This document shows positions 13,711 through 37,258 of a stretch of DNA of 64,000 nt, piece by piece; within the stretch, counting starts at the first letter, position 1; each line of letters starts with the position of its first letter. The notes under the pieces were generated by a model. The model did not search any database. It was given only the letters and a program-made list of their open reading frames with translations, and was not told where the DNA came from. This DNA is from Geosporobacter ferrireducens (lineage in GTDB: Bacteria; Bacillota; Clostridia; Peptostreptococcales; Thermotaleaceae), in NCBI RefSeq assembly GCF_001750685.1, contig NZ_CP017269.1, forward strand, positions 1,465,416-1,529,415. The letters are read 5' to 3'. The position numbers and the translations under genes were made by a program.

Positions 13711-14745
13711 TTATTTTACTTCAACGATCCAGCCTTCGGGCGCTTTCACATCTCCGAATTGAATTCCACAAAGTATATCATAGAGCTTTTTAGTGACTGG
13801 TCCTACTTCCTTTTCGCTATGGAATACATGAAGTTTCCCATTATATTCTATCCCTCCGATAGGCGTAATGACTGCGGCGGTTCCGCAAGCTCCGGCCTCT
13901 GCAAATTCATCCAGCTTATCAATCAGGACATCTCTTTCTTCAACTTCCATACCCATATATTCTTTCGCCACATGCATCAAAGAATACTTCGTGATACTTG
14001 GAAGGATGGATTCGGATTTTGGTGTAACAAATTTATTATTCTTAGTAATTCCAAAGAAGTTGGCAGCACCAACCTCTTCGATTTTACGGTGAGTCAAAGG
14101 GTCCAGGTAAATACAGTCTGCAAAGCCTTTCTTTACAGCCACCTCATGGGGCATCAAGCTTGCGGCATAGTTGCCTCCTACCTTGGCAGCACCTGTTCCG
14201 TAGGGTGCTGCTCTGTCATACTCGGAAACAATAAAGTTGACAGGCGTCATGCCTCCTTTAAAATAGGGCCCTACAGGGATGCAGAATACGCCAAAAATAT
14301 ATTCCGGAGCAGGCTTCACACCGATATTGTCCCCAACTCCGATTACATAAGGCCGGAGATAGAGGGTAGCACCTGTGCCATACGGCGGTACATAGTGTGC
14401 ATTAGCCCTTACAACTTGTACACAAGCACCGATGAATTTTTCTTCTGGGATTTCAGGCATCAAGAGCCGTCTGCAGCTGCTTTTCATACGCTTTGCATTC
14501 TGATCCGGCCTGAAGAGTTGTATCTTCCCATCCTTTGTTCTGTATGCCTTCAAGCCTTCAAAGCACTGTTGTCCATAATGAAGAGCCGCTGAGCCTTCAC
14601 TTATGGTCAGGGTATTGTCTTCCGTTAACTTACCGTCGTCCCAGCTTCCAGACTTCCATACAGAGATATAGCGGTAATCTGTCTTTATGTAGTTAAAACC
14701 CAATTTGCTCCAATCAATATCTACCGCTTTCGTCATATCAATCAC
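13711..14745 (-). CDS. ilvE: branched-chain amino acid aminotransferase (PLP fold type IV)
   Basis: 344 aa. Motifs [24 protein letters not shown] and others are characteristic of IlvE. Confidence 0.9.
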
Positions 14746-14968
14746 CTCTCTAAATTTTTATAATATTTAATAAAAGCTTCTTATTCCATCGTAACAAAAA
14801 AAGGCATTGCACACAATGTTATCATTGTATACAATACCATTTTCTTTACTGTACAGCGGCAATTAATATTCTCAGTTATTTTTTAATATACGAATACTTC
14901 CTGACGAACTTTTAAGTACCACTTTATTGTTCTTCATAGCAATCTATTTTTTTCCACCTTTTTTATTT

Positions 14969-16036
14969 TTAGAGCAAGGATTTTACCCATTCCCGTTTAT
15001 TCCATAATGCACACCCGCCCTTCGGTTCATTCAGTCCGGTATGGTTTTGACGGATTTTTTTCATCAATTCGGACTGTAGCGCCTCTTTTAATGATACTTC
15101 TCTTATATTTACATCAGAATAGGGCGCAAATGGACAAGGTTCCACGTCGCCTTCAGCACTGACATGAATAAATCCCCGCCCTGCCGAAAGACATCCACCA
15201 TAATCCTTCTCGTCGCCCGGAAAACTTACAAACAGTCCCGGGAATTTAGCCCTGAAGGAATCCAAAATTTGGGCAAGCGCAATCCGCTGTTCTTCCAAAA
15301 TCACAAGATCCTCCGTCGCTTCCTTTACCGGAATATACTCCACAAAGAAAAACAATTGACAGCCCGATGCCAATAATTTATTGATAAAGGCTTCGTCAGT
15401 CAGTGTATCAAAATTCTTTCTTGTAACAGTAAATGAGTAACCGAAAAAGATACCGGAATGCTTCAGTTTCTTTATCGTTTTCTGAAGGTGTTCATAAACA
15501 CCGGAGCCTCTTCTTTCATTTGTATCTGTTTCATATCCTTCCATACTGATTATGGGGACTACATTTCTTTGATTTCTTAGTCGAGTAATGATCTCGTCAG
15601 TAATCAGTATTCCGTTTGTGAAAAGAGGAAAGATTATTTCCGGATTTTCATTTGTTATGTCAAGGATGTCAGGCCTCATAAGCGGTTCACCGCCCGCAAG
15701 AAAAATGAACGAGATACCCAGACCTTTTGCCTCCAGAATTACTGATTGTAATCTATCACAGCTCATCTCTTTTTCAACTGGTCTGTGCTGTGCCTTAGAA
15801 TAGCAGCCTTTGCACGCAAGATTGCATCGGTTCGTTATACTGATGATCATATATGGTGGAACCTTAAGTTCCTGCTTTTCATATTCCATCCTTGTTTGAG
15901 CAGCTTTCTTCTGAAAGTAAATGCTTTGAAGGACAAACTCCATCATTGCTGGTTTTTTTACGATAATCCTCAGGGCATCATGAAAGAAATCACTTATCGA
16001 ATTGTTCAGCTTAATACTATAATCATTATTTTTCAA
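14969..16036 (-). CDS. radical SAM protein (with C-terminal Cys-rich SPASM-like region)
   Basis: CNLACKGCYSK CxxxCxxC motif and glycine-rich GGEP. Additional C-terminal cysteines. Downstream of, and likely co-transcribed with, the TetR gene. Confidence 0.7.
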   Translation of the reverse strand: MKNNDYSIKLNNSISDFFHDALRIIVKKPAMMEFVLQSIYFQKKAAQTRMEYEKQELKVPPYMIISITNRCNLACKGCYSKAQHRPVEKEMSCDRLQSVILEAKGLGISFIFLAGGEPLMRPDILDITNENPEIIFPLFTNGILITDEIITRLRNQRNVVPIISMEGYETDTNERRGSGVYEHLQKTIKKLKHSGIFFGYSFTVTRKNFDTLTDEAFINKLLASGCQLFFFVEYIPVKEATEDLVILEEQRIALAQILDSFRAKFPGLFVSFPGDEKDYGGCLSAGRGFIHVSAEGDVEPCPFAPYSDVNIREVSLKEALQSELMKKIRQNHTGLNEPKGGCALWNKREWVKSLL

Positions 16037-17002: not shown

Positions 17003-18241
17003 CTAAACTAAAACTGACTTATTGATTGTTGCTGCAATCTCATTTTCTGTAAAGCCATCTGTAAAAACCTCACTGATTTTGCCATCTTTTATCATTACAA
17101 TACAGGGCACGTCCTTTACCCCTAGTCGATTAGCTATACCTGCAGATTTATAGATATCCACCTTTGTAAATCTAGCTTTTCCTTTATATTCCTCTTCCAT
17201 TTTTTCTATAGTCGTTAAATATTCTCTGGATTTAGGGTCGACGGCATTATATATATAAATAATACCAGTTATATCATCTTTCATAATTTGCTGATGGAAA
17301 AGTTCGCTTTCTGCTATATATTTTTCAGCACCAAAACCTGCTATGGCTCCATCTCCAACAGCCGTAGCAACTTGTTTAAGAAACTTATCTCTTACATCTC
17401 CGACTGCAAATACACCCTCTATATTTGTCTCCATTTTCTCATTGGTAATTAAGTAACCCCCTCGATTCATATCCAAAATATCTTTGAATATTTCCGTATT
17501 GGGAAGGTAGCCAATAAATAAGAAACAAGAATCTACTTCAACAGGAATACGTTCATTGGTTTTTAAATTTTTCAAGATCACGGTTTGCAAATGTCCTTCT
17601 CCTGCAAATTCCTCTACTACTGTATTCCAAATAAACTCCATTTTGGGATTAGATAAAGCTTGCTCCTTCGCAATTTCGTTACAATCCATTTTTCCAACAT
17701 CATGTAGTACGGAGACAATTACTTTTTTTGCGAATTTCGTGAGGAACATACCCTCTTCAATCGCTGCATCTCCACTACCAACGACAAGAACCGTTTTATC
17801 TGTGTTTGCAGCTGCGTCACAAGTAGCACAGAAGGATATCCCTTTGTCATACAAGTAATCTGCTTCTCCTTTTGCACCAGTCAATCTAGGCTTCCCGCCA
17901 GAGGCAACAATAACAACCTTTGCTTCATAATTAGTTCTAAAGGTTTCAACGATCTTGGTTTCACCTGCTAGCTGCACACCTTTTACATCTGTTAACTTAA
18001 AGCTCACGCCAAATTTTTTCGCTTGTTTGTGAAATAGATCCATTAAGCCCAGACCGGTTGTTCCTTCTGGAAAACCAGGATAATTTTCTATTTCATTGGT
18101 GTATGTTGCAAGTCCTCCTACCAAGGACTTTTCTATAATCAGGGTTTTTAACCGGGCACGACCACAGTAAATACCCGCGGTCAGACCAGCCGCTCCGCCA
18201 CCGATAATTACTACATCATACTTCTCTACTTTCTTCTGCAT
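17003..18241 (-). CDS. thioredoxin-reductase-like FAD/NAD(P) oxidoreductase fused to a C-terminal thioredoxin-fold domain
   Basis: YDVVIIGGGAAGLTAG FAD motif, redox-active CATC, and the second Rossmann motif VLVVGSGDAAIEEG. The extra C-terminal domain of about 100 aa (VPCIVMIKDGK) is Trx-like but has no CxxC. Confidence 0.8.
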   Translation of the reverse strand: MQKKVEKYDVVIIGGGAAGLTAGIYCGRARLKTLIIEKSLVGGLATYTNEIENYPGFPEGTTGLGLMDLFHKQAKKFGVSFKLTDVKGVQLAGETKIVETFRTNYEAKVVIVASGGKPRLTGAKGEADYLYDKGISFCATCDAAANTDKTVLVVGSGDAAIEEGMFLTKFAKKVIVSVLHDVGKMDCNEIAKEQALSNPKMEFIWNTVVEEFAGEGHLQTVILKNLKTNERIPVEVDSCFLFIGYLPNTEIFKDILDMNRGGYLITNEKMETNIEGVFAVGDVRDKFLKQVATAVGDGAIAGFGAEKYIAESELFHQQIMKDDITGIIYIYNAVDPKSREYLTTIEKMEEEYKGKARFTKVDIYKSAGIANRLGVKDVPCIVMIKDGKISEVFTDGFTENEIAATINKSVLV

Positions 18242-18256
18242 GAATACCCCTCCAAA

Positions 18257-18790
18257 CTACATAAAGAATTTTACCAGCAGCTTACTCCCTATTACAGCAC
18301 CAGCAAATAGGAAAATAGCAAACACCCATCCTGATAATGATAATGAAGCAATCCCACTAAATAATGCACCAATATTGCAGCCAAAGGCAATCCTTGCTCC
18401 GTATCCCATTAATAAACCACCCACGCACGCAGCCACAACTTGCTTGCCTGATTTAATCTTTTTAATTTTAAATTGTGAAGCAAGTAAGGTGGCCAATAAA
18501 GCTCCTACGATTGTACCTAGATTTCTAATTGAACCAGGATCCTTTAAAAATCCAGCTTCTAAAGTAGCCTGAGCACCTTCACTGCTAAAGTAATACCATT
18601 TATCTACATTACCGCCTACCGCTCTGTAGAGCCAAGCTCCCCAATTGGCAAAAGCTCCGCTAACACCCCAGGGATCACCGGTAGAGGCCAGTGTTGCAAT
18701 CTGGAAAATCGACAAAAGAATTGCGCCTGTCACATAGGTCCAAGCACCCTTCACCCATATTTTATAAAACTTGCTTTCATAAAGGTTCAA
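18257..18790 (-). CDS. YeeE/YedE-family sulfur/selenium (thiosulfate) transporter, C-terminal half
   Basis: GGLLMGYGARIAFGCNIGALFSG motif typical of the YeeE/YedE (TsuA) repeat. Confidence 0.75.
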   Translation of the reverse strand: MNLYESKFYKIWVKGAWTYVTGAILLSIFQIATLASTGDPWGVSGAFANWGAWLYRAVGGNVDKWYYFSSEGAQATLEAGFLKDPGSIRNLGTIVGALLATLLASQFKIKKIKSGKQVVAACVGGLLMGYGARIAFGCNIGALFSGIASLSLSGWVFAIFLFAGAVIGSKLLVKFFM

Positions 18791-18810
18791 AATTTCACCC
18801 CCAAATAAAA

Positions 18811-19038
18811 CTACTTGGTCTTTTCAATAATAATTTCCCATTCCCCATCATCTACTTCTTCAATTTCAACATTGTGCCCTTCTTTTCTTGCCCATTCAGG
18901 AACATTTTTCATTGCACAGCTATGGTCAATTTGAACGATTAAAAAGTCACCCACTGCTAATTCTTTTAGTTTGTTTTCTGTTTTAACCAATGGTACTGGA
19001 CAAGCTTCTCCTAAACAATCTAACATTACCTCTTTCAT
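18811..19038 (-). CDS. TusA-like sulfurtransferase (YedF/TsuB-type)
   Basis: 75 aa with the CPxP motif (DCLGEACPVP). Sits between the two YeeE halves. Confidence 0.75.
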   Translation of the reverse strand: MKEVMLDCLGEACPVPLVKTENKLKELAVGDFLIVQIDHSCAMKNVPEWARKEGHNVEIEEVDDGEWEIIIEKTK

Positions 19039-19068
19039 AAAATAATCCTCCTTAACAATTTATGAATA

Positions 19069-19758
19069 TTATTGCTCTTGATTTCTGTTCTCCCACTTAT
19101 CAGCAAGGATATATAATCCAGCAATCAGTAAAAGTTGAACAGCAACTGCTCCAAACCATCCAAAGAGATCGGGTAAAAATACCGTTGGTCCCTTCAGCAT
19201 AAAATTTAACTTCCACCATCCATAGTCATGAGCGCCCCAAAGGGAACCGATGACAAAGAAAATCAAAGATAAAATTTGCATCGTAAAGCCTTCGCCAACA
19301 CGCATGAGTGTCCCTGAAGCACAGCCACCAGCGATAACCATACCGATACCAAACAGCAAAGCGCCTACAGCTGTGGCTAAACTGATTGGCACTACATAGC
19401 CTTGGCCAGGAATCGGCAAACCCTTGCTATAATAGCCGTATTTGATAGCTGTAAAGCCGATGGTAGTTACTGCAAACGCTATCAGAACAGCTCTAGTAAC
19501 AGAAGTGCTTCCTGTAAGATATGGGTCTCTCATGGAAGCCGTAAAACAAAATCTAGACTTCTGAAGAATCACCCCAAAGCAGCAACCTAGTATCCAGAAA
19601 AGAGTAAGCTTAGCAGAGATCGTTGATAGATAGATGCCAAATGCAATTACGCCTACCAGTAGCGCAATCCCATAGGGCTGTTGCTTTTTCTTAGGCTTTC
19701 TACCGGCACCTTCTCTTCTTCTGGAGGAAGTACGGCTGCTAACATTTGATTCAGACAT
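19069..19758 (-). CDS. YeeE/YedE-family sulfur/selenium transporter, N-terminal half
   Basis: GGCASGTLMR and ILGCCFG motifs. Unusual N-terminal basic tail (SRRREGAGRKPKKKQQ). Confidence 0.75.
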   Translation of the reverse strand: MSESNVSSRTSSRRREGAGRKPKKKQQPYGIALLVGVIAFGIYLSTISAKLTLFWILGCCFGVILQKSRFCFTASMRDPYLTGSTSVTRAVLIAFAVTTIGFTAIKYGYYSKGLPIPGQGYVVPISLATAVGALLFGIGMVIAGGCASGTLMRVGEGFTMQILSLIFFVIGSLWGAHDYGWWKLNFMLKGPTVFLPDLFGWFGAVAVQLLLIAGLYILADKWENRNQEQ

Positions 19759-19991
19759 AGCATCACCCTCCTTAAAATCGATACTTTTTTAACAATGATG
19801 ACTAAATACATTATATCATAGATGAAAATTTATGATTATTTGATATGATTATATAATATAAAGATAAGTTATAATGCATCTTGGGGTATAAGATATAATT
19901 ATAGTAAAGTCTATGCTATAATAATGTTAAAAAGATAACACAAAAATCATGGGTAAGAAGTTAGGGTATCTGCTGAGCAGGAGGGATTCAA

Positions 19992-20888
19992 GTGAATATT
20001 GAATATTTAAAGTATTTTTATGAAGTGGCCACAGCGAAAAGTATTTCGAAGGTAGCAGTTAATTTTCACATTTCACAACCTGCATTAAGTCAACAAATCC
20101 AACGATTGGAAGAGATGTTGGGATATAAGCTTTTAAACAGAAGTAATAAAGGGGTGGAGCTTACGGAAGCAGGTCAGATTGTCGAAAAGTATGCTAGAAC
20201 CTTAGTCAAGGGCTATGGAAATATGCTTGAGGATTTAAAAGCCATCAGCAGCAATCATGCTACCATACGAATCAATTCTAATGTAACATTAGCGACCTAT
20301 GCACTGCCCTGTACATTATACACCGTTCAGCAAAATTTTCCTGAATTGCTATTTAATCTTGCATCAGCCTTTTCAAATCAGGTCGAGCAGAATGTTCTCA
20401 ATGATGTATGTGACGTGGGATTTATTTACGGGAAGCCCGAAGATAAAGATCTATCCTATGCAAAGGTTGGGGCCGAACAATTAATTGTTGTGGCATCAGA
20501 AGGCTTCAATATTCGACAGGATGTATGTCTAAAGGATTTAATCAGCTATCCACTCTTTATGTTAAACAACATCCATAGAGAACAAAAACAGATCAATCGA
20601 TATTTAATGGATTTAGGCTATAACTTGGATCATTTTAATATTTCCCTGTCTTTAGACTCCATTGAATCACTAAAATCAGCAGTAATCAAAGGATATGGAC
20701 TTGCAATTGTACCTTATATCTCCGCTAAAAAAGAAATCTATACAAAACAGCTCAAGCAGATTTACATTGGCGATTTTGACATGAAGCAGGATATCTATAT
20801 TCTCTATAAAAAAGAAAAACTGCATAATAGCAGTGTAAAAGCGTTTATTCAATACATAAAGAAAATCGGAGAACAAAGCTTTTGCTAA
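19992..20888 (+). CDS. LysR-family transcriptional regulator (divergent from the YeeE-TusA-TrxR operon)
   Basis: HTH ISKVAVNFHISQPALSQQIQRLEEMLGYKLLNR. GTG start with GGAGGG RBS. Confidence 0.8.
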   Translation: MNIEYLKYFYEVATAKSISKVAVNFHISQPALSQQIQRLEEMLGYKLLNRSNKGVELTEAGQIVEKYARTLVKGYGNMLEDLKAISSNHATIRINSNVTLATYALPCTLYTVQQNFPELLFNLASAFSNQVEQNVLNDVCDVGFIYGKPEDKDLSYAKVGAEQLIVVASEGFNIRQDVCLKDLISYPLFMLNNIHREQKQINRYLMDLGYNLDHFNISLSLDSIESLKSAVIKGYGLAIVPYISAKKEIYTKQLKQIYIGDFDMKQDIYILYKKEKLHNSSVKAFIQYIKKIGEQSFC

Positions 20889-21103
20889 AGCTTTGTGATA
20901 AATATCTCCCAGATACCATTCATTACTTCCTGAGATTCTACTTTCAAACTCTTTTTACTATAGTGGTCTAAGATAGATTGCAAAACGCAGCTGTGATCTG
21001 TAATAACCTTTATTGTATCATTAGCCGACATTGACTTTAGCGCTTCTTTAATTCTTAGAACAGGAATCGGACAAAATTCGCCTAAGCAATCTATCTCACG
21101 CAT
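20885..21103 (-). CDS. TusA-like sulfurtransferase (second copy)
   Basis: 72 aa with DCLGEFCPIP CPxP motif. Confidence 0.7.
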   Translation of the reverse strand: MREIDCLGEFCPIPVLRIKEALKSMSANDTIKVITDHSCVLQSILDHYSKKSLKVESQEVMNGIWEIFITKL

Positions 21104-21282
21104 GTTATCCCCTCTTTATTCATTATTTACTACTTTTATTATACCATTTACATATAAATTTTGTACGAGTATCCTTAAACTGTGGTTAGATATTTATGAT
21201 CAATCCTCTGAGAAACTACCCTTTCTATATCTAATAAATCTGTGATTGCAAATGTATCGCTCAATTTAAATGGGGGCTTGCT

Positions 21283-22434
21283 ATGAATATTTCTTTTTAT
21301 GAACCTTACTATATCGGTACAGAAATCAACCATATCAGAGAGGCTATGGAACAACATCAAATTAGTGGAGATGGCCACTATACAGAAAAAGTTGTATCCC
21401 TACTGAAAAATAAGTTTGAAATCCTAAATATGGTCATGACCACTTCTGCCACCCATGCCCTTGAAATGGCAGCATTATTGATAGACTTAAAGCCAGGGGA
21501 TGAAGTCATCATGCCCTCCTTTTCTTTTCCTTCTACTGCAAATGCAGTGATGCTTCATGGAGGAAAGCCTGTATTTGCAGAAATTGAAGAAGCAACCTTA
21601 AATATTGATGTAAAAGACGTAGAAAGGAAAATTAGCAAAAACACAAAAGCGATCATTCCTGTACATTATGGAGGAATTGCGTGTAAAATGGGTGAGATAA
21701 TGACATTGGCAGAGACCTATCATTTGTATGTTATTGAAGATGCTGCACAAGGAGTCAATGCAAAGTTTAAAGAAAAGCATCTGGGGACTTGGGGACATAT
21801 GGGATGTTATAGTTTTCATGGCACAAAAAACTATACCTGTGGAGAGGGAGGCGCGCTGCTGTTAAATACCAGTGATGAGCAACTTCTGTATCGAGCTGAA
21901 ATCATTAGGCAAAAAGGGACCAATCGCAGGCAATTCATGCTTGGGGAAATTGATAAATATTCATGGGTAGATATGGGATCAAGTTATACTCCCTCAGATC
22001 TTTTAATGGCTTTTTTATATGCGCAGCTCGAGTCAATGGATCATATCACTCAAAAAAGAAGAGCCATTCACAGCTATTATGAAAACTTTCTTAAAAGGTA
22101 TGTGGATAGAGGAATCATTAAAATGCTTCAAACACCCATTGACTGCACACCCAATTTTCATTTGTTTACCATTTTGTGTAGAAATGAGAGAGAGAGAAAT
22201 ACGCTAATGGGCAATTTGAAAAAGAAAGGAATCGCTACTGCTTTTCACTTTGTTCCATTGCATAGCTCCACAGCAGGACAAAAACTCGGCTATCATCAGA
22301 ATGATTTACCCCTCACTGAAAACCTTAGCAAGTGTTTGCTAAGATTGCCCATCTATCCAGGGATGACTGCAGAACAGCTTGCCTATATACAAAAACACCT
22401 TTCCAGCTGTCTCGACGCGTTTGGGGAATTATAA
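21283..22434 (+). CDS. wecE: DegT/DnrJ/EryC1/StrS-family PLP aminotransferase, WecE/RffA-like (dTDP-4-keto-6-deoxyhexose 4-transaminase)
   Basis: Very strong similarity, recalled from memory, to E. coli WecE across the whole length: GDGHYT, TSATHALEMAALLIDLKPGDEVIMPSFSF, VHYGG, EDAAQG, SFHGTKN (PLP Lys) and GEGGALL. Confidence 0.8.
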   Translation: MNISFYEPYYIGTEINHIREAMEQHQISGDGHYTEKVVSLLKNKFEILNMVMTTSATHALEMAALLIDLKPGDEVIMPSFSFPSTANAVMLHGGKPVFAEIEEATLNIDVKDVERKISKNTKAIIPVHYGGIACKMGEIMTLAETYHLYVIEDAAQGVNAKFKEKHLGTWGHMGCYSFHGTKNYTCGEGGALLLNTSDEQLLYRAEIIRQKGTNRRQFMLGEIDKYSWVDMGSSYTPSDLLMAFLYAQLESMDHITQKRRAIHSYYENFLKRYVDRGIIKMLQTPIDCTPNFHLFTILCRNERERNTLMGNLKKKGIATAFHFVPLHSSTAGQKLGYHQNDLPLTENLSKCLLRLPIYPGMTAEQLAYIQKHLSSCLDAFGEL

Positions 22435-23172
22435 ATGGTCATTCAGATTTCAGTTGTTATCCCTGTTTATAATAGTGAAAAAACACTTGCTGAGTTGATT
22501 CTGCGGCTTACGCATACGCTTCAAAAACTATGCACTATACAATATGAAATCATCCTTGTGGATGATCATAGCCAAGATGATAGTTATAGGGAACTGCAGC
22601 GATTAAAAAAACACCATCCACAGATTAAACTTATACAGTTAGAAAGAAACTTTAGTCAGCAAAATGCCTTAATGTGCGGTTTGCATTATGCAGAAGGTAC
22701 ATTTATTATTACCATGGATGATGACTTACAGCATCCTCCGGAGGAAATAGAAAAACTTCTGAAAAAGCTGGAGGAAGGCTATGATGTGGTTTTTGGTATT
22801 CCCATAAAAAAAAATCATCCCAAATATCGCAACGTTGGAACCAAGCTGATTCGATGGTTATTTAACAAAATATGTGCAAAACCTTCTGGTGTTCAAGTCA
22901 GCAGTTTTCGAATCATGCGAAGAAATATTGTAAAGCAGCTTATTTTGAACACAACATCTTTCGTCTATTTAGCGCCGATTATTTTTAAAGTCACATCCAA
23001 TGTAGCAGACATTCCAGTTATACATGACCAGAGGAAATGCGGAGAATCAAATTATAACCCCTATACATTAATCAAGCTATTTATAAAGGTCATTCTCTAC
23101 TATTCAAGTTTTTCCAAATACTTGCCGTTTCCGAAAAAACCGCAGTTTGTAATAAAAAATATTCAATGGTAA
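22435..23172 (+). CDS. GT2-family glycosyltransferase, polyprenol-phosphate sugar transferase-like (ArnC/DPM1/GtrB type)
   Basis: VIPVYNSEKTL ... ILVDDHSQDDS ... ITMDDDLQH motifs. Start codon overlaps the wecE-like stop (ATAAATGG). Confidence 0.75.
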   Translation: MVIQISVVIPVYNSEKTLAELILRLTHTLQKLCTIQYEIILVDDHSQDDSYRELQRLKKHHPQIKLIQLERNFSQQNALMCGLHYAEGTFIITMDDDLQHPPEEIEKLLKKLEEGYDVVFGIPIKKNHPKYRNVGTKLIRWLFNKICAKPSGVQVSSFRIMRRNIVKQLILNTTSFVYLAPIIFKVTSNVADIPVIHDQRKCGESNYNPYTLIKLFIKVILYYSSFSKYLPFPKKPQFVIKNIQW

Positions 23173-23184
23173 GGAGTATGTTCC

Positions 23185-24423
23185 ATGAAAATTCTAGTTT
23201 TAGGTGGAAGTAACATTCAGTTAAATGTAATCCAGCGAGCAAAGGAAAAAGGCCATACTGTAATTGTGTCTGATTTCTATCCTCATGCTCCTGGGAAAGC
23301 CTATGGAGATTATAGCGAAAACGTTAGTACCTTTGATATTGATGGAAATATCCAAGTTGCTAAAAAATATGGAATTGACGGGGTTCTTACCATCGGAACA
23401 GATCAGCCTGTGTATACTGCCGCAAAAGTTGCGGAAGCGCTTAACCTTCCTTCTCCCATTGATGCAAAAACTGCAAAGGCTGTAACGAATAAAAAAGTGA
23501 TGAAACAAATATTTGCTCAAAATAAAATTCCTACCGTTGCATTTGCACTATTAAAGAAAGACTTTGCAGACAGTGATTTATATAGCTTTCAATTTCCAGT
23601 CGTCATTAAACCACTGGACAGCCAAGGGCAAAGAGGCGTATATAAATTAGATTCCATGAATGATATCCGCAATCTATTTGATGATGTATTGAGTTTTTCG
23701 CGGAAAAAGGAGATTTTACTTGAAAGATTTTATCCCAGTGATGAGATTACCGTTAGCGGTTGGGTAATTAATGGAGAAACCTATGTTTTTTCCATTGTAG
23801 ATCGATTAACCTTTAACAATTATCCTCATATCGGTGTTTGTATCGGTCATCATTTCCCCTCTAAATATATGAAAAAATATTATGATGAAATTCTCTCCAT
23901 TACAAAAAATATTGTAGCCGCCTTTCAAATCAAAAATGGCCCTATCTATTTCCAAATGCTCATTGGCGAGGAAGGCATAAAAGTCAATGAAATTGCCTGC
24001 CGTATTGGAGGAGCCTATGAGGATGAATATGTTCCACAAATTATAGGCATTGATCTTTTGGATATGCTTATTGATAGTGCCCTTGGAAAAACTATCGATC
24101 CTACTGGACTCAAGCACTTTGACTTGTATTCAACGGATAAACATGTTTCCGTAGAAATGTTTTTTGCGAAGACTTGTATTATTAAAGCTTTAACAGATAT
24201 GGAGAAAATCAAAAAACTCCCTGGTGTATTGCAGGCAAAGCACAACTTTCAAATTGGAACAGAAATCAAAGAAATCGCCAATGCTACCCAAAGAGCAGGC
24301 TATATGATCATTCAAGGAAAAAGTGCTGTGGATTTGTCATCAAATATTAAACGTGCTTATGACCAGTTAGGCATATACGACGAAGCTGGTAACAATATGC
24401 TGATTCGGTTCAATGGCAAATAG
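23185..24423 (+). CDS. ATP-grasp family ligase
   Basis: MKILVLGGSNIQLNVIQRAKEKG pre-ATP-grasp domain followed by an ATP-grasp core. 12 bp downstream of the GT2 gene. Confidence 0.7.
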   Translation: MKILVLGGSNIQLNVIQRAKEKGHTVIVSDFYPHAPGKAYGDYSENVSTFDIDGNIQVAKKYGIDGVLTIGTDQPVYTAAKVAEALNLPSPIDAKTAKAVTNKKVMKQIFAQNKIPTVAFALLKKDFADSDLYSFQFPVVIKPLDSQGQRGVYKLDSMNDIRNLFDDVLSFSRKKEILLERFYPSDEITVSGWVINGETYVFSIVDRLTFNNYPHIGVCIGHHFPSKYMKKYYDEILSITKNIVAAFQIKNGPIYFQMLIGEEGIKVNEIACRIGGAYEDEYVPQIIGIDLLDMLIDSALGKTIDPTGLKHFDLYSTDKHVSVEMFFAKTCIIKALTDMEKIKKLPGVLQAKHNFQIGTEIKEIANATQRAGYMIIQGKSAVDLSSNIKRAYDQLGIYDEAGNNMLIRFNGK

Positions 24424-24465
24424 ATTGCAATATAATTAATAATGGAGCAGAAATCTGCTCCATTA

Positions 24466-26025
24466 TTAATTATCACGGACTTTATAAATCTTTATTTTCC
24501 AATCCTTTGTACTCATATATCTAACGATTCGAATGCCATAGACAGAGTCGGTGAATTCATAGACTTTATCACATTTTTGTGTTAAAAATGCTTTCATTTC
24601 TTCATAATAAACCAAATTTCCATAAAGCCCATACCAGACCGGACGGGTATCATAAATAAAATCCATCTCTTCCGGATAAATAATATATTGAATTTGATTT
24701 TTATAAATATACTCCTCAAAATCCATCTCATGATTTTTCAAAAATGCTAAATTTCGATAATCATAAAGTTTCCCATTTTCAAAATAATACTCTGTATTGA
24801 GGTTTGCAAGCACAACAGAATCAGAGGGTACAACCTTAGAAATTTCAGCAATATATTGATCGTAAGTAGGATTAGCAAAAGGAAGTATCTGCATCGTTGT
24901 TGCCATTAAAATCAAAAAAAAGATGATTCCAACAGACAGTCTTCGATAAAGCATAGGCAGATTTTTCACAGCATAAATAACTAAAATATAAAATAATGGA
25001 AATAAAAAAATAACACTGGTCTGATTATACCTGCCAATGATTATATTCCCACCATTTACTGCAAAAATCCCTAAAAGAATTGACAAAATATTCTCTTTCT
25101 CTCTCCCCTTCCTTCTAAAAAGTATTATCGTTGAAAAAAATAAGGCGCTTAAAAATAATATCGCTTGAAGTTTTATATTGGGCGTATAGTAAGTTCCACT
25201 CACTTGATAAAATAGTTTCAGATAGTAATACTTTACCTGGAGTATTTTTGAAGAAATCGGCTGCAAGACTTCAAATTCGCTTTGTCCATAAGCCATATAA
25301 TTTCTAATAAAATTGGGGTCAAAGGAAATACTCAAAAGCACAAAGCCTGCTGCAAAGCCTACTACAGTAAAAGCATACAGTAATAAATTCATTAGGTGCG
25401 TTCTTTTTGTAAGGCAGATGTGGTACAAATAAATAAGACCAAAGGGCAAAGCAATCACAAAACTGTTTGGATGCAGTCCAATGCTTAGTCCAACCAGTAC
25501 TCCAAGCAAAAGATCCTTTTTGTATCCTTTTTCATCCATTCGAGAAAACATAAAGTATAGTCCATATGATAATACACAAACAAGCAAAATCTCCTGCCGT
25601 GCAAAATGGGAGGCATAGATGAATTGTATATCCATACTCAGCAATAGCATGGCCAATACAGCCCACTTGGAAGAATTAAAAATATATGCACTTAGTTTAT
25701 ACATATACCCTAAAGAGAGCAACCCAAATAAAAGCGATATCATACGCATATTGAACAGGCTATAGCCAAAGCATTGAATAAATAAAACCTGAATCATATG
25801 AAAGAGTATTTTTATAGCATGGGGATTCCTGATTTTTAAATCATAGAAGGACTCTGTCACCGAAAAGCTTTTATTCTCCAGCATATTTCTAGATAAGCCG
25901 CTTAACCAAGATTCGTCAGAGTGTATAAAGGGAAATCTGGTCAAAAAAATGGTATTCAGTAAAAAATACCCGATAAAAAAAGCATATAATAAATATTTTT
26001 TATGCAACTGCTTCTGTTTTGTCAT
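24466..26025 (-). CDS. GT-C membrane glycosyltransferase (family 39 / PMT_2 / ArnT-like, polyprenol-phosphate-sugar dependent)
   Basis: About 12 TM helices in the N-terminal two thirds, a soluble C-terminal domain, and a conserved RFPF-I-HSDE loop after TM1. Likely start MTKQKQ at 26025 with AAAGGAG RBS; the track ORF runs longer to 26163. Confidence 0.6.
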   Translation of the reverse strand: MTKQKQLHKKYLLYAFFIGYFLLNTIFLTRFPFIHSDESWLSGLSRNMLENKSFSVTESFYDLKIRNPHAIKILFHMIQVLFIQCFGYSLFNMRMISLLFGLLSLGYMYKLSAYIFNSSKWAVLAMLLLSMDIQFIYASHFARQEILLVCVLSYGLYFMFSRMDEKGYKKDLLLGVLVGLSIGLHPNSFVIALPFGLIYLYHICLTKRTHLMNLLLYAFTVVGFAAGFVLLSISFDPNFIRNYMAYGQSEFEVLQPISSKILQVKYYYLKLFYQVSGTYYTPNIKLQAILFLSALFFSTIILFRRKGREKENILSILLGIFAVNGGNIIIGRYNQTSVIFLFPLFYILVIYAVKNLPMLYRRLSVGIIFFLILMATTMQILPFANPTYDQYIAEISKVVPSDSVVLANLNTEYYFENGKLYDYRNLAFLKNHEMDFEEYIYKNQIQYIIYPEEMDFIYDTRPVWYGLYGNLVYYEEMKAFLTQKCDKVYEFTDSVYGIRIVRYMSTKDWKIKIYKVRDN

Positions 26026-26228
26026 AGCATACTCCTTTGCATTGATACTAAAATCATTATAGCACACTCTTTTAATTGGGATATACGCCTTTGACCCTAT
26101 GGGTGTATCAAATAATTCGATATAATATTTGAAAAACTTATAACAATAGCAGAAAGGAATCAAGTATAATAAAAGGAGAATTGTGCATTATTTAACAATA
26201 TTGATTTCTATATGAAGGGGGCAAAAGT

Positions 26229-27143
26229 ATGAAAAGAATGGTAAGATCGATATTTATTATTTTAATAGCTACTTTAATGCTTTTGACAATAGGGTGTACT
26301 TCTACAAAAGTAGAGGGGAGCGGACAAAATATTATTGAAGCAGGCAACGTATCAGCTTTGTTAAATGAAAATCACGCGGTTTTAGTCGATATGCAGAGTG
26401 CAGAAGAATATGCAACAGCACATATTAAAGGCGCAGTAAATATTAAGCGAGAGGATATTACGATAAATGTACCCGTTTCAAATATGTTAGTCTCAAAAAC
26501 AAAAATTGAAGACCTATTAGGAAAAAGCGGAATCGGAAATGATACTACGGTGATCATCTATGACAATACCAACAATATGGATGCAGCTCGACTTTGGTGG
26601 ACGCTGAAGGTTTACGGTCATGAAAATGTAAAGGTGGTTAGCGGCGGATATAAAGCCCTTAAAAATGCTGGTCTTGAGGTTACTTCAGATGTACCTGGTA
26701 TTATGGAAACAACCTATGCAGCAAAAGACAAAAATACAGACATGATTGCTACCATAGAAGATGTAAAAGCACAAGTCAATGACCCTAGTAAGGATGTTGT
26801 TCTATTGGATACCCGTACAGAAGAAGAATTCAACGAGGGCACGATACCGGGTTCTATCCTCCTTGATTATATCCAAAACAACTATAAGGATGGTACATAC
26901 AAATCCATTGAGAATATCAAGATCCAATATATCGAAAAGGGAATTACCCCTGAAAAAACTACTATTCTTTACTGTAAGACTTCTATCAGAGGTGCACAAA
27001 CCTATCTAGCTCTTTATAATGCCGGTTATCGCAATCTTAAGCTCTATGACGGCGCCTGGGTAGAATGGTCTGCAAATCCTTCCTTGCCAGTTCAAAGACC
27101 TGAAGGCTTAAAAGTAGAGTCAAATCAACAGGACAATTCATAA
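26229..27143 (+). CDS. tandem rhodanese-domain lipoprotein (thiosulfate sulfurtransferase-like)
   Basis: Lipobox LLTIGC. Two rhodanese domains; the second has the active-site CKTSIRG. Confidence 0.8.
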   Translation: MKRMVRSIFIILIATLMLLTIGCTSTKVEGSGQNIIEAGNVSALLNENHAVLVDMQSAEEYATAHIKGAVNIKREDITINVPVSNMLVSKTKIEDLLGKSGIGNDTTVIIYDNTNNMDAARLWWTLKVYGHENVKVVSGGYKALKNAGLEVTSDVPGIMETTYAAKDKNTDMIATIEDVKAQVNDPSKDVVLLDTRTEEEFNEGTIPGSILLDYIQNNYKDGTYKSIENIKIQYIEKGITPEKTTILYCKTSIRGAQTYLALYNAGYRNLKLYDGAWVEWSANPSLPVQRPEGLKVESNQQDNS

Positions 27144-27313: not shown

Positions 27314-28264
27314 ATGATGAAAAAAAATAGCTTTAAGTTTCTTGTAGCTCTACTTATTTTAAGCTTATCTTTCAGTTTAGCCGGCTGCGGAGCAAAACAA
27401 GAGCCACCGGCTCCTGCTCCTGCAGCTCCTGAGACAAGTGCTCCAAGTGCAGTAGAAACAGCCGCAAATGCCTACTTTGCAAACATGCCTCAAGATGTTT
27501 ATAAAATTAGTCAAAAGGATTTTATTGACAAAGTAAAAGCAGGAGAAGATATGTTCATCTTAGATATCAGACAGGCAGATGTATATGATAAAGGGCATGT
27601 AAAAGGGGCAGTCAATGCGCCTTGGGGAACAGCCATTAGCGATAACCTGAGCAAATTGCCTAAAGACAAAACCCTTATGGTATATTGCTACACAGGACAA
27701 ACGGCTGGTCAGGCAGTAGCATTATTAAATATGGCAGGTTTTGATGCAAAATCTGTAAATCTTGGATGGGATTTTGGTATATCTAAGGTTGAAGGCATTG
27801 CAGATGTCACAGAAACAGAATCCAATGATTTCCCACAGGGAACACCTGCCGATATCCCTGCAGATGTCAAAACTGCAGTAGAAGCCTATTTCAAAGGATT
27901 AGCCGACGTAAAAGGTACAACTTATGCTAATTACAAAATTAGTGAAGATGATGCAAAGGCTCTATTAGATGCAAAGGATGATAGTGTGATTTTCCTTTCC
28001 ATCAGAAGTGCAGAAGACTATGCTAAGGGTCATATTGAAAGCGCTATGAATATTCCATTCGGTAAGGGAATGGAACAAAAATTCAACACATTACCTAAGG
28101 ATAAGAAAATTATAGTCTACTGCTACACAGGCCAAACTGCCGGTCAAACCGTAGCAGGTTTAAAGATGCTTGGCTATGATGCAGTTTCATTAAATGGCGG
28201 CATGGGTATGGAATCCAATGCGCCACAAGGATGGATCAATAAAGGTTTTCCTGTTGTACAATAA
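27314..28264 (+). CDS. tandem rhodanese-domain lipoprotein
   Basis: Lipobox SLAGC and a Pro/Ala linker. CYTGQTAGQ active-site loop occurs twice. Confidence 0.8.
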   Translation: MMKKNSFKFLVALLILSLSFSLAGCGAKQEPPAPAPAAPETSAPSAVETAANAYFANMPQDVYKISQKDFIDKVKAGEDMFILDIRQADVYDKGHVKGAVNAPWGTAISDNLSKLPKDKTLMVYCYTGQTAGQAVALLNMAGFDAKSVNLGWDFGISKVEGIADVTETESNDFPQGTPADIPADVKTAVEAYFKGLADVKGTTYANYKISEDDAKALLDAKDDSVIFLSIRSAEDYAKGHIESAMNIPFGKGMEQKFNTLPKDKKIIVYCYTGQTAGQTVAGLKMLGYDAVSLNGGMGMESNAPQGWINKGFPVVQ

Positions 28265-29161: not shown

Positions 29162-30403
29162 ATGGCAGGATATACGGAACTTATTAAAAATTTTGAAAAA
29201 ATTCGTTCCTTTACCAGGGACTTCTTTATCTATGGCTTCAAAGGAAGAGGCGATTTCGATGGACTTTCACCACGCACTTATGACAATGAGCGCAGACGGA
29301 TAGAAAGTTATCTTAGTGAACTGATTGTTAAAACCCATGATAGTAAAGGAAAAAGCATTTCAATATCCTCAAATACCATTGCAAAAACATCCAATCCACT
29401 TTTTAAAGTATGGCAAACCAAGTCTTTTACAAAAAAAGATTGCTTTCTTCACTTTGTAATTCTCGACATTTTTTCAAAGCATACAAGCTTAAGTGTAAGA
29501 GAAGTTGCTGAAATCATTAGTGATGATTATACTACAGCCTTCAGCGCCAGTGAGCCTATGGATACCATGACGATTCGCAATAAGCTTAAAGAGTATACCC
29601 AGCTCGGTATACTGGAAGGGAAAAAATCCGGCAAAACCCTGCATTATTCTTTGCCACCTAACCCACTTCATCGTCTCTCCCCTAAAACAAGTGAAAGCCT
29701 CAACATGGCTTTATCCTATTATAAAAACATTTTGCCGGGAGGCTTCATGGGTCATTCCATAAACAATGAGCAGGACAGTCCTTTTATCTATAAACAAATT
29801 TATTTTTCACAGACATTGGACGATGAAATTGTATTAAAACTGCTTGAGGCCATAGAGATGAAACGGATGGTCACGCTGACAATGATCCCTGCTAAAGGTG
29901 ATAGAAATAGAAAAAATCCTTGTGTTCCCATTCAGATTTTAAGCAATACAAAATCTGGAAGGCGTTATGCAGCTATATACCATGAGAACAGCAGGAAATT
30001 CTCCACAGTACGAATTGATTATATAAAGGACGTGGATTTTGGTGAAATCTGTCCTGAATTTGACAACCTTTTTAGGGACTATCAACTTCGTATGAAACAT
30101 TCTTTTTCAATTACCCCTCAAACGAAAGAAAAACTCCATAACCTAACTGTGCGTCTTCAAATAGATGAAGCTACCGAACAATATGTACTTGAACGTATTC
30201 GAAGAGAAGGTCAACATGGTACGCTTACGAAAATAGAAGATAATATTTTTGAATACAGTATAGGCATACCGGATAGTCTTGAAATGGTTCCATGGCTTAG
30301 AACATTTATTGGTCGTATTCTTCAGATTGAGGGCAGCGAGGCCCATATCATTTCACAGTTTAAAAGAGATATTCATGCTATGCTGGCAATGTATGAAGAC
30401 TGA
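29162..30403 (+). CDS. WYL-domain transcriptional regulator (wHTH - WYL - WCX architecture), long form
   Basis: WYL-like core RMVTLTMIPAKGDRNRKNPCVPIQILSNTKSGRRYAAIYHENSRKFSTVRIDYIKDV and a C-terminal WCX-like segment EMVPWLRTFIGRILQIEG. Confidence 0.6.
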   Translation: MAGYTELIKNFEKIRSFTRDFFIYGFKGRGDFDGLSPRTYDNERRRIESYLSELIVKTHDSKGKSISISSNTIAKTSNPLFKVWQTKSFTKKDCFLHFVILDIFSKHTSLSVREVAEIISDDYTTAFSASEPMDTMTIRNKLKEYTQLGILEGKKSGKTLHYSLPPNPLHRLSPKTSESLNMALSYYKNILPGGFMGHSINNEQDSPFIYKQIYFSQTLDDEIVLKLLEAIEMKRMVTLTMIPAKGDRNRKNPCVPIQILSNTKSGRRYAAIYHENSRKFSTVRIDYIKDVDFGEICPEFDNLFRDYQLRMKHSFSITPQTKEKLHNLTVRLQIDEATEQYVLERIRREGQHGTLTKIEDNIFEYSIGIPDSLEMVPWLRTFIGRILQIEGSEAHIISQFKRDIHAMLAMYED

Positions 30404-30436: not shown

Positions 30437-31420
30437 ATGGATAGTATCTATAATGAAATATATGGCTTGTACTATTGGATGTTAGAAAAAATACTTAAAA
30501 AAGCAATGTCGTCTGAGCTTACCCTGAAAGATATCCATGATATTGTTGCACAATATGGTTTTTCTGAAAGCAATCTATATTTTACCCCTGAGGTTATCGC
30601 TCAGGGAAAACAGGGATATAATCTGCTTAAAGAATCCGGCGCCGGTTATGCTTCTATTCTTCAGTCCAGTCCTGCAAAGCCCTTGACAAATTTGCAGAAG
30701 TCCTTTATAAAAAGTGTCCTTTCTGATAAAAAGATCCATTTGTTTTTTGACGAAGACATGCTTAAAGAAATCCATGAAGCCCTATGGGATACGGCTCCCC
30801 TTTTTAATGTGGATAACATTGCCTTTAAAGAAACTGCCTTGGATAGAGATGATTATGCCGATGAGAAATATATTTCTAATTTTAAGTGTATTCTTGGGGC
30901 AATAAGGGATAACCGGGCACTAAAAATCTGCTTTAACACTTCAAAGGGTGAGCGTAAGACAATGAAACTTGCGCCTTATAAACTGGAGTATGGAATTCGT
31001 GATGATAAGTTTCGCATATGTGGTATTCGCATACAGGAAGAAAAGGAAAATCTCTATGTGAAAATCAATCTTGCCAGAATCGTATCGATAACTGTGCTCA
31101 AGCAATCCTTTCTGTTGGATTATGAATCTTTCATCGCTGCCAAACGCAAAACAGAGCCTATTGAGATAGAGGTCTATAATCTTCGCAAAGGCTTCGAACG
31201 CGTGTTTATTGGCCTGTCCAATTATGAAAGAATCTCCAGCTTTCATGAAGAATCTGGTAAATGCAGTATTAAAATCTATTATACCGATGATGATGAGCAG
31301 GAGCTTTTAATTCTACTCCTTTCCTACGGACCTGCTATAAAAGTATTAGGTCCTCCAGATTTTAGAACCAAATTTATTGAAAGGGTACAAAAACAGTTCC
31401 ATATGTTCAATAGGCCCTAG
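30437..31420 (+). CDS. WYL-domain transcriptional regulator (second, tandem)
   Basis: WYL core KLAPYKLEYGIRDDKFRICGIRIQEEKENLYVKINLARIVSITVL and a classic WCX C-terminus ELLILLLSYGPAIKVLGPPDFRTKFIERV. Confidence 0.75.
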   Translation: MDSIYNEIYGLYYWMLEKILKKAMSSELTLKDIHDIVAQYGFSESNLYFTPEVIAQGKQGYNLLKESGAGYASILQSSPAKPLTNLQKSFIKSVLSDKKIHLFFDEDMLKEIHEALWDTAPLFNVDNIAFKETALDRDDYADEKYISNFKCILGAIRDNRALKICFNTSKGERKTMKLAPYKLEYGIRDDKFRICGIRIQEEKENLYVKINLARIVSITVLKQSFLLDYESFIAAKRKTEPIEIEVYNLRKGFERVFIGLSNYERISSFHEESGKCSIKIYYTDDDEQELLILLLSYGPAIKVLGPPDFRTKFIERVQKQFHMFNRP

Positions 31421-36253: not shown

Positions 36254-37258
36254 TTAGCATATCCTGGGGAGCATATCTCCCTCAAGAGGCCCAACAATTC
36301 TCCTGCCCCCAATAACTGTTTCCATCACTACCTTTGGAAATAGTCCAGTGGAAAGAAAGCTACCAATGATTGCTGCATCTTCACAGTCTTCACATTGCCA
36401 AATTTCCTCTAGTACCGCTCTAGCCTTCTGCTTGTCAACCACAATGATCAGCCTGCCCTCACAGGCATGATATAGTGGGTCTAGTCCTAAAAGCTCATTG
36501 ATAGATTTCACTTCCACAGCTATCGGAATAGCCTCTTCTAATAGCTGAATTCCGCGTCCTGATGCCTCTAGGATTTCATTTAAGGCAGTTGCCAAACCTC
36601 CTCTGGTAGGATCCTTCATTAACTTAATACTTCCCATATATGTCTGAAGCTTTTCAAGAATATGATTTAATGGTCTACAATCGCTTTTTATATTTTCTTC
36701 TACTTTTATTCCATACCGTTCCACCGCTATGGTAGTGCCATGCTGGGCAATTCCCCCAGTGATAATAATTTGATCTCCCGCTTGAATGGGTTTTGGTTGA
36801 TACTGAGCCTGAACCACGCCTATTCCAGAAGTATTGATGAATACCCCATCTACTGAGCCTTTCTCCACCACCTTTGTATCTCCTGTGATTATTTTCACTC
36901 CTGTTTTTCTACAGGTCTCTCCGATGGAGGCTGCAATTCTCTCAAGCAGCTCCATATCAAAGCCCTCTTCAATGATAAAGCCACAGCTTAAATATAATGA
37001 TCTGGCTCCTGCTGCAACGAGATCATTTATGGTACCACAGACAGCTAATTTGCCAATGTTTCCCCCTGGAAACACCAGAGGCTTTACAACAAAGGAGTCT
37101 GTTGTAAAGGCCAGTCTCCCATGAATCCCATCAAATACAGATGCATCTAGAGAATTTACTAACATATCGTTATGAAAATGCTTATAAAAGATATCCTTGA
37201 TCAGTATGCTTGTATGTTTTCCTCCGTCTCCATGGCGGAGCATCACTGTTTTTTCCAT
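36254..37258 (-). CDS. hypE: [NiFe]-hydrogenase maturation factor HypE (carbamoyl dehydratase)
   Basis: AIR-synthase-like fold: LRHGDGGKHTS N-terminus and C-terminal PRIC. Start MEKTV at 37258, one nt after the hypD stop. Confidence 0.9.
   Translation of the reverse strand: MEKTVMLRHGDGGKHTSILIKDIFYKHFHNDMLVNSLDASVFDGIHGRLAFTTDSFVVKPLVFPGGNIGKLAVCGTINDLVAAGARSLYLSCGFIIEEGFDMELLERIAASIGETCRKTGVKIITGDTKVVEKGSVDGVFINTSGIGVVQAQYQPKPIQAGDQIIITGGIAQHGTTIAVERYGIKVEENIKSDCRPLNHILEKLQTYMGSIKLMKDPTRGGLATALNEILEASGRGIQLLEEAIPIAVEVKSINELLGLDPLYHACEGRLIIVVDKQKARAVLEEIWQCEDCEDAAIIGSFLSTGLFPKVVMETVIGGRRIVGPLEGDMLPRIC

Follow-up and report, generated by a model that had tools for sequence, protein, structure and literature searches.

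The 64-kb window analysed here (64,000 nucleotides of Geosporobacter DNA, the whole stretch) encodes, in four neighbouring genes, a WecE-type sugar transaminase, a family 2 glycosyltransferase (GT2), an ATP-grasp ligase and a GT-C glycosyltransferase. From the families of these proteins and the genes around them, we think it on balance probable that they make a lipid-linked, N-acylated (probably aminoacylated) 4-amino-4,6-dideoxyhexose, which the GT-C enzyme would transfer outside the membrane, in a pathway tied to extracytoplasmic transfer of sulfur or selenium. The four glycan genes constitute one arm of a larger conserved locus, which has ~11-14 genes in all. A preliminary description of this DNA had treated the quartet as standing alone, and made no mention of the sulfur/selenium-trafficking locus in which it sits.

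Conservation of the four-gene unit was analysed in 80 genomic loci containing relatives of the ATP-grasp enzyme, one genome per species, by tblastn with the window's proteins and all-against-all clustering of open reading frames (ORFs). About 53 of the 80 loci hold an ATP-grasp orthologue (38-68% identity); below 33% identity the gene context is wholly different. The GT2 gene lies directly 5' of the ATP-grasp gene in every orthologous locus, with gaps mostly between -4 and +26 nt, and in six spirochaete loci the two are fused into one ORF of 685-842 aa (in one fusion, Pfam places GT2 at residues 6-138, ATP-grasp_4 at 417-555 and LAL_C2 at 605-676). GT-C is present in 34 of the 35 loci with full flanks, here meaning no less than 6 kb of sequence on the 5' side and 7 kb on the 3' side, and loci fetched from two Peptococcaceae GT-C homologues contained the same gene set. 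The co-occurrence expected of the quartet is thus borne out for the ATP-grasp gene, which stays with both glycosyltransferase genes, and it is the transaminase that proves the least constant of the four (25/35 full-flank loci). A few carriers bear phylum labels remote from Bacillota, namely Calditrichales (L003), Pseudomonadota (P0073) and Patescibacteria (P0180) metagenome-assembled genomes. The proteins of these carriers share 52-59% identity with those of the window, which, with such distant phylum labels, suggests mis-binned contigs or recent transfer.

ORF families were called with Pfam and NCBIfam profiles against curated cut-offs, and the four ORFs of the preliminary description are real by this measure, with domain calls that exceed the cut-offs. 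The transaminase is a DegT family protein (292 bits, Pfam). It scores above the cut-off for NF008687 (dTDP-4-amino-4,6-dideoxygalactose transaminase, WecE; 508 bits, cut-off 375) and for TIGR02379 (450.7 bits, cut-off 434.85), matches the E. coli WecE structures 4piw and 6blg with ~350 bits, and contains the pyridoxal-phosphate (PLP)-lysine motif SFHGTK. The equivalog score and the motif together place it in the WecE family, and it is probably a dTDP-4-amino-4,6-dideoxygalactose (Fuc4N) transaminase. In 12 of the 35 full-flank loci, an RmlB gene stands next to the transaminase gene. Its product is a bona fide dTDP-glucose 4,6-dehydratase as judged by TIGR01181 (437 bits, cut-off 365), which fits dTDP-4-keto-6-deoxyglucose as the transaminase substrate, and a few relatives also have RmlA (glucose-1-phosphate thymidylyltransferase-like) in the locus. 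The locus-encoded RmlB proteins form a short group (327-335 aa, 74-86% identity), set apart from the 350-aa RmlB that is the commoner form in other Clostridia; named members are from Sporosalibacterium and Caldisalinibacter, genera that also have the locus.

The ligase contains ATP-grasp_4 (PF13535, 42.1 bits, cut-off 27) and LAL_C2 (PF18603, 44.6 bits, cut-off 29.4). Its AlphaFold2 model has a pLDDT of 92, and the top Foldseek matches were 4dim (a structural-genomics protein), 3vot (BL00235, TM 0.81), RizA and BacD. The core, LAL_C2 and the fold identify it as an L-amino-acid-ligase-type enzyme, and its context argues for a sugar amine, not a free amino acid, as the nucleophile. A DegT gene lies within 10 kb in 12 of 26 loci with distant ATP-grasp homologues.

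The preliminary description held that it would be novel for a Gram-positive surface to carry an acylated amino-deoxyhexose. This claim is weakened by anthrose on B. anthracis BclA, which is an acylated 4-amino-4,6-dideoxyhexose. It is weakened further by the type B flagellin glycan of C. difficile, in which the terminal Fuc3N amine bears taurinyl-Ala-Gly (PMC5207245). Our set includes the type B flagellin modification locus of C. difficile (L055), which by Pfam encodes FemAB-like, ATP-grasp, ornithine-cyclodeaminase-like, FdtA and DegT aminotransferase proteins. Its ATP-grasp enzyme is 32% identical to the window's, and a mutant in the ATP-grasp gene CDR20291_0245 is without the terminal peptidylamido-sugar (PMC5207246). 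This precedent makes plausible the earlier suggestion that the window's ligase amidates the 4-amino group.

The GT2 protein (Glycos_transf_2, 118 bits, Pfam) has ArnC (9hwj, 129 bits), GtrB and DPMS as its best solved relatives, these being the top seven distinct PDB sequences, and carries the motif MDDDLQHPPEE at residues 94-104. Motif and relatives place it in the polyprenyl-phosphate class of ArnC, GtrB and DPMS. Judged from its alignments, it is of the enzyme class of ArnC yet no ArnC orthologue: it scores 144.8 bits against the ArnC model NF007986 (cut-off 529), covering profile positions 6-223 of 316, and the alignment with ArnC ends at residue 225 of 322. PgfS was its second-best NCBIfam match (114 bits). 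The GT-C protein has a PMT_2 domain (37.9 bits, cut-off 26.1), is multi-pass, and has a confirmed GT-C fold, with ArnT among the top fold matches. Its acidic first-outer-loop motif is invariant, and domain, fold and motif together make it a GT39/PMT_2-type enzyme. It is not a protein O-mannosyltransferase proper, as Pfam finds no MIR domain and the PMT model gives 19.3 bits, below the cut-off of 22.7.

In 10 spirochaete-type loci, two small four-helix membrane proteins (112-125 aa) are encoded directly 5' of GT2. In NCBIfam they match ArnE and ArnF best, at ~30 bits and so far under the cut-offs of 92-99. Conserved small ORFs of the loci were also checked for a flippase, and were mostly antisense artefacts inside real genes; only the spirochaete pair was real. 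The Arn-like route proposed in the preliminary description therefore holds up, on the strength of the WecE match, the ArnC/GtrB/DPMS relatives of GT2, the GT-C fold, and the ArnE/F-like pairs and RmlA/RmlB in relatives.

In the Arn pathway (ArnB, ArnA, ArnC, ArnD, ArnE/F and ArnT), which places 4-amino-4-deoxy-L-arabinose (L-Ara4N) on lipid A, the amino sugar is N-formylated before ArnC loads undecaprenyl phosphate. We propose a comparable sequence of steps for the window. The transaminase would convert dTDP-4-keto-6-deoxyglucose, the substrate expected from its family, into a dTDP-4-amino-4,6-dideoxyhexose, probably Fuc4N. The keto sugar would come from RmlA and RmlB, which are in the locus in some relatives and would necessarily be encoded elsewhere in the Geosporobacter genome. 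The best 120 matches of a protein search with a locus-type RmlB included no Geosporobacter protein, which speaks neither for nor against this. The ATP-grasp enzyme, coupled to GT2, would then join a carboxylate, most probably an amino acid, to the 4-amino group by an amide bond. This step would take the role of N-formylation by ArnA, pulling transamination forward and making the substrate that GT2 recognises. GT2, as a member of its class, would move the sugar onto undecaprenyl phosphate, the lipid-linked sugar would be flipped (by the ArnE/F-like pair in the spirochaete versions), and GT-C would hand it on to an extracytoplasmic acceptor. The near-constant GT-C partner and the ArnE/F-like pairs lend indirect support to transfer onto undecaprenyl phosphate by GT2. 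Since the locus encodes no deacylase, the acyl group is probably retained.

The remainder of the locus points to sulfur or selenium. Rhodanese genes are present in all 35 full-flank loci, split YedE/YeeE genes in 28 of the 35, and TusA-like genes in 29 of the ~53 orthologous loci. In 38 of 43 loci, no more than 700 bp separates the GT-C gene from a rhodanese gene, 29 of these being divergent pairs, and nearly all of the rhodanese orthologues have a lipobox or signal peptide. The linkage is retained through eight or more distinct gene orders in Clostridia, Halanaerobiales, Peptococcaceae, Eubacteriaceae, Anaerolineales and Spirochaetota, a pattern that favours selection for linkage over inherited synteny. 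The view that the flanking LysR, YedE and rhodanese genes are unrelated neighbours was overturned by the tblastn survey of the 80 loci. No extracytoplasmic proteins other than the rhodanese lipoproteins are common to all versions of the locus. Since GT-C adjoins the rhodanese genes, and the unit travels with YedE/TusA, a thioredoxin reductase-thioredoxin (TrxR-Trx) fusion and LysR, we propose the rhodanese lipoproteins or a partner structure as the acceptor; on adjacency alone, the lipoproteins themselves are favoured. The modification would help to take up or reduce thiosulfate, persulfide or selenium and would not be a matter of general envelope charge. Many carriers of the locus are thiosulfate- or sulfur-reducing fermenters. 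In Halanaerobium, rhodaneses increase with thiosulfate (PMC5497025).

The two YedE halves are permuted, in that the 5' gene encodes the C-terminal half of the profile and the 3' gene the N-terminal half, and the same layout is found in most related loci. Both are under the curated cut-offs (108 and 99 bits against 350 for YedE/FdhT; 71 and 59 bits against 400 for TsuA), as are the TusA-like proteins (50.6 against 147.5 for TsuB; 42.6 against 110 for YedF). From these scores, we assign the YedE- and TusA-like context genes to superfamily level, not to subfamily. No cysteine-to-selenocysteine (TGA) positions were found in the locus proteins across the loci. Six loci, mainly of Eubacteriaceae, encode a cytoplasmic CoA-disulfide-reductase/rhodanese fusion of 565 aa (L024, at 17858-19555, L029, L030, L023, L008 and L038), which adjoins a YedE-like gene and resembles NADH-dependent persulfide reductases. 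One Peptococcaceae locus (L084, 1657-5970) has a Psr/Phs-type molybdopterin oxidoreductase set between RmlB and LysR, consisting of a catalytic subunit, a chaperone, a 4Fe-4S subunit and an NrfD membrane subunit.

The same pathway logic would also fit a self-contained envelope system, in which an aminoacylated 4-amino-6-deoxyhexose on a wall polymer or teichoic acid gives L-Ara4N-like charge and resistance to cationic peptides, the sulfur genes being bystanders. The free alpha-amine of an aminoacyl group would add positive charge. This explanation is unlikely, because bystanders would not be expected as rhodanese genes in every full-flank locus, through so many gene orders, and so consistently beside GT-C. 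The locus occurs in both monoderms and diderms, which makes it unlikely that the acceptor is specific to one lineage, as lipid A or teichoic acid would be, and it contains no two-component or peptide-sensing regulator, only the sulfur/selenium-type LysR. Nothing points to the charge-altering, antimicrobial-peptide role put forward in the preliminary description, and we consider an extracytoplasmic sulfur or selenium role more likely.

A second alternative arises from a further set of genes. In most relatives, three SsuA/SsuC/SsuB-like ABC-importer genes lie between ATP-grasp and GT-C, 3' of the ATP-grasp gene and in one operon with it (30-31 of the 35 full-flank loci). This arrangement, and the loci in which the transaminase is missing, would suit an ATP-grasp enzyme that ligates an imported sulfur compound (for example, as an amide conjugate of a sulfonate or thiol from the importer), with the glycosyl genes merely co-regulated. 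We find this improbable given the close tie between GT2 and ATP-grasp, which form one protein in six loci and in most others are translationally coupled. The importer is also lost separately: it is wholly gone from the Geosporobacter locus, and in the nearest other relative, Clostridiaceae bacterium 35-E11, the binding protein and permease are kept and the ATPase is gone, with ATP-grasp intact in both. The glycan arm can therefore do without the importer. Conversely, four Halanaerobium loci (L013, L016, L019 and L021) have a second, inverted SsuABC-like importer and a further rhodanese gene 3' of the second rhodanese gene, and no ATP-grasp gene accompanies these extra copies. Thus the importer seems to be part of the sulfur arm, tracking the rhodaneses and not the glycan genes. 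The importer's best NCBIfam matches carry 'Sao' names, which trace to Haft's selenoprotein ABC system (bioRxiv 10.1101/2022.07.06.499078; PMC13188914); because the importer scores under cut-off, no inference was drawn from them.

Sulfur and glycan could be joined more directly if the ATP-grasp enzyme attached an amino acid that contains sulfur, such as cysteine or cysteate. The sugar displayed by GT-C on the outer membrane face would then be a tethered thiol or sulfonate cofactor on or beside the rhodaneses, accepting or activating and then relaying sulfane sulfur (from thiosulfate, polysulfide or S8) or selenium to YedE, TusA and TrxR. This form of the proposal is quite unlikely to be correct; if true, fermentative anaerobes from several phyla would possess an extracellular sulfur relay borne on a glycan.

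The product might instead be a soluble sugar-amino-acid metabolite, such as a low-molecular-weight thiol like bacillithiol or mycothiol, with GT2 an ordinary soluble enzyme and GT-C functionally separate. GT2 is without a transmembrane helix, the sulfur/redox context includes the TrxR-Trx fusion and, in Eubacteriaceae loci, the CoA-disulfide-reductase/rhodanese fusion, and synthesis of bacillithiol and mycothiol also pairs a glycosyltransferase with an amino-acid ligase. We nevertheless rate a soluble product as very unlikely, as the closest solved relatives of GT2 are exclusively polyprenyl-phosphate transferases, GT-C is all but constant in the locus (34/35), and ArnE/F-like pairs precede GT2 in 10 loci. 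It is scarcely credible that the transaminase and GT2 are part of an ordinary O-antigen, enterobacterial common antigen (ECA), S-layer or capsule pathway with the four-gene adjacency incidental: NCBIfam names show that WecE-family enzymes normally serve such pathways, but there are no Wzx, Wzy, further glycosyltransferase or rml genes (Pfam on the window's large ORFs; tblastn with RmlA and RmlB from the locus), and the same compact gene set recurs in ~50 species, so that synteny contradicts it.

Several points weigh against the proposed lipid-linked pathway and its tie to sulfur or selenium. The transaminase gene is absent within 10 kb in 10 of the 35 full-flank loci, so the ATP-grasp enzyme cannot strictly depend on a neighbouring supply of 4-amino sugar, although those genomes may have a transaminase gene at another site. 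No gene for RmlA, RmlB or a flippase was found in the 64-kb window by tblastn with sequences from the locus. The search of the window with RmlA, RmlB and SsuABC-like sequences gave a single match, an unrelated ABC ATPase at ~52 kb, and tblastn found no ArnE/F-like pair. GT2 has no hydrophobic or transmembrane segment, unlike ArnC, and both GT2 and GT-C score far under the ArnC and ArnT equivalog cut-offs. The structure searches do not separate a GT-C with a protein acceptor from one with a lipid or glycan acceptor. The linkage could reflect shared regulation instead of a shared biochemical pathway. Finally, sulfur and selenium are equally possible: the nearest NCBIfam families are often selenium-annotated and all matches are under cut-off, so the two elements are not separable here.

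Within the window, the transaminase, GT2 and ATP-grasp genes form a single operon (21283-24423, + strand; Table 1). The preliminary description had given a ATAAATGG overlap between the transaminase and GT2 genes. The two in fact abut, with the stop codon TAA at 22432-22434 followed directly by the ATG at 22435, leaving zero gap and no common bases. Its 12-nt gap before the ATP-grasp gene is right, and a GGAG ribosome-binding site lies inside it. The GT-C gene had been extended too far, to a TTG at 26163; we place the start at the ATG at 26028, because homologues are 517-525 aa long and an AAGGAG site precedes that ATG. This gene is tail to tail with the three-gene operon and divergent from the rhodanese gene at 26229.

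A strong hairpin (-25.3 kcal/mol, z = -7.6; equalled in 0 of 200 shuffles) occupies most of the 42-nt interval between the ATP-grasp and GT-C genes and overlaps the GT-C stop codon. It is likely to be a bidirectional terminator common to the operon and the GT-C gene. The hairpin lies where relatives carry the three ABC-importer genes, and its region (24424-24482) may be the junction of the importer deletion besides a two-way terminator. A promoter and terminator scan gave no more than the shuffled expectation, and the three divergent intergenic regions, at 19759-19991, 21104-21282 and 26029-26228, yielded nothing beyond standard TGnTATAAT-type promoter elements and weak AT-rich matches, with no usable common regulator motif. 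G. ferrireducens contig VENK01000014 has the same gene order, with ATP-grasp and GT-C proteins 99% and 96% identical to the window's. The window thus derives from that species (class Clostridia, order Peptostreptococcales) or a strain very near to it.

Table 1. Glycan genes, intervening hairpin and sulfur/selenium-type genes of the locus, with positions in the window
Feature	Position	Strand	Description
TrxR-Trx fusion	17003-18241	-	412 aa; TIGR01292, 316 bits; TrxA-like C-terminus; 20/35 loci
YedE/YeeE half	18257-18790	-	NF033796, 98.8 bits (cut-off 350 for the whole protein), profile positions 5-159 of 387; Pfam Sulf_transp
TusA/YeeD/YedF-like sulfur carrier	18811-19038	-	75 aa; CPxP motif; between the YedE halves; Pfam TusA in the G. 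ferrireducens copy
YedE/YeeE half	19069-19758	-	Sulf_transp, 108 bits; NF033796, 108 bits, profile positions 178-384 of 387
LysR regulator	19992-20888	+	Nearest NF040786 (selenium-metabolism-associated LysR), 195 bits, below cut-off 250; 26/35 loci
Second TusA/YedF-like protein	20885-21103	-	72 aa; divergent from transaminase operon; kept in L081 and L082
Transaminase	21283-22434	+	WecE-type PLP sugar aminotransferase, 383 aa
GT2	22435-23172	+	Short polyprenyl-phosphate glycosyltransferase class (ArnC/GtrB/DPMS-like), 245 aa
ATP-grasp	23185-24423	+	L-amino-acid-ligase-type carboxylate-amine ligase, 412 aa
Hairpin	24432-24473	.	Perfect 19-bp stem, 4-nt loop, between convergent ATP-grasp and GT-C genes
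GT-C	24466-26028	-	GT39/PMT_2-type polyprenyl-phosphate-sugar-dependent glycosyltransferase, 520 aa, C-terminal soluble domain
Tandem-rhodanese lipoprotein	26229-27143	+	Lipobox LTIGC; rhodanese, 133 bits over two domains; divergent from GT-C gene
Second tandem-rhodanese lipoprotein	27314-28264	+	Lipobox SLAGC; Pro/Ala/Ser/Thr-rich linker; CYTGQTA in both active-site loops

Compared with known systems, the glycan arm is most like Arn in its logic, with a PLP 4-aminotransferase, N-acylation before transfer, a GT2 acting on undecaprenyl phosphate, a flippase pair like the small multidrug resistance (SMR) proteins in the spirochaete versions, and GT-C transfer outside. It differs in that the transaminase is WecE-type (192 bits against the ArnB model NF008658, cut-off 631) and the ATP-grasp enzyme fills the N-acylation slot; no ArnA or ArnD domains were found in the locus ORFs or in the large ORFs elsewhere in the window. 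Every Arn equivalog cut-off is missed widely, and GT2 is without the transmembrane helices of its Arn counterpart. The host is a monoderm of the Clostridium class without lipid A, and the context is sulfur/selenium, not PmrAB and cationic-peptide resistance.

The C. difficile type B flagellin locus (CDR20291_0244-0247) likewise has a PF13535 ATP-grasp enzyme beside a DegT aminotransferase acting on a dTDP-6-deoxyhexose, and its product has an aminoacyl chain on the amine of an amino-deoxyhexose and holds sulfur as a sulfonate (PMC5207245, PMC5207246). However, that sugar is Fuc3N, made via FdtA/FdtB, and not a 4-amino sugar, and cytoplasmic glycosyltransferases act on flagellin with no lipid carrier and no GT-C. 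The FemAB-like and ornithine-cyclodeaminase-like enzymes of that locus have no counterpart in the window, and the rhodanese/YedE context has none in that locus. The window is thus not a type B locus, as only the ATP-grasp enzyme (32% identity) and a DegT-family enzyme are in common.

Three-component systems that use undecaprenyl-phosphate-linked sugars (GtrA/GtrB/GtrC, CsbB/YfhO and S. mutans PgfS/PgfM) share a GtrB/PgfS-class GT2 and a GT-C acting on an extracytoplasmic acceptor; the S. mutans Pgf system glycosylates surface proteins. In contrast to the window, they draw on plain UDP-hexoses or UDP-HexNAc and lack an aminotransferase and a ligase, and their GT2 enzymes have transmembrane helices. 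We know of no such system with a link to sulfur-transfer genes. The YeeE/YeeD (TsuA/TsuB), YedE/YedF and rhodanese systems for thiosulfate or polysulfide share Sulf_transp halves, TusA-like proteins, rhodaneses, TrxR and LysR families with the locus, which differs in having YedE split into two genes around a TusA gene and in scores under the family cut-offs. To our knowledge, no described YedE, TsuA or rhodanese system includes a glycosylation module. A STRING table lists a glycosyltransferase beside YedE in Slackia, without comment (PMC5322559). We found no published description of the combined glycosylation/rhodanese/YedE locus in the literature. The pathway logic is new in that an ATP-grasp enzyme replaces the formyltransferase within an Arn/Gtr-type three-stage system, which is joined to a sulfur/selenium locus. 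Lipid-linked sugar pathways that end in a GT-C are themselves well known, but we know of none with an ATP-grasp ligase, nor of one tied to exported rhodaneses and a YedE/TusA/thioredoxin-reductase line.

Other genes in the window include a class IV aminotransferase and a radical-SAM/SPASM protein (13711-16036), left of a TetR regulator and the TrxR gene and not conserved with the locus elsewhere. On the other side, and outside the conserved locus, are two adjacent genes (29162-30403 and 30437-31420; 413 and 327 aa) that are also present in G. ferrireducens. The first product has no Pfam or NCBIfam match and the second a weak match to WCX (WYL-associated) alone. An IS110-family transposase gene lies at 1880-3193, and NiFe hydrogenase large and small subunits are encoded with HypE-like, HypD and HypF maturation genes at 36254-43863.

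The locus is found in anaerobes that are relevant to sulfide production and selenium use, including Halanaerobium, Desulfitobacterium, relatives of Acetobacterium and spirochaetes. If the proposed pathway is correct, an ATP-dependent route would be added to the known modes of amino-sugar N-acylation. The working of extracytoplasmic rhodaneses and their sulfur recipients are poorly understood, and a conserved glycosylation partner would provide a testable handle on both.

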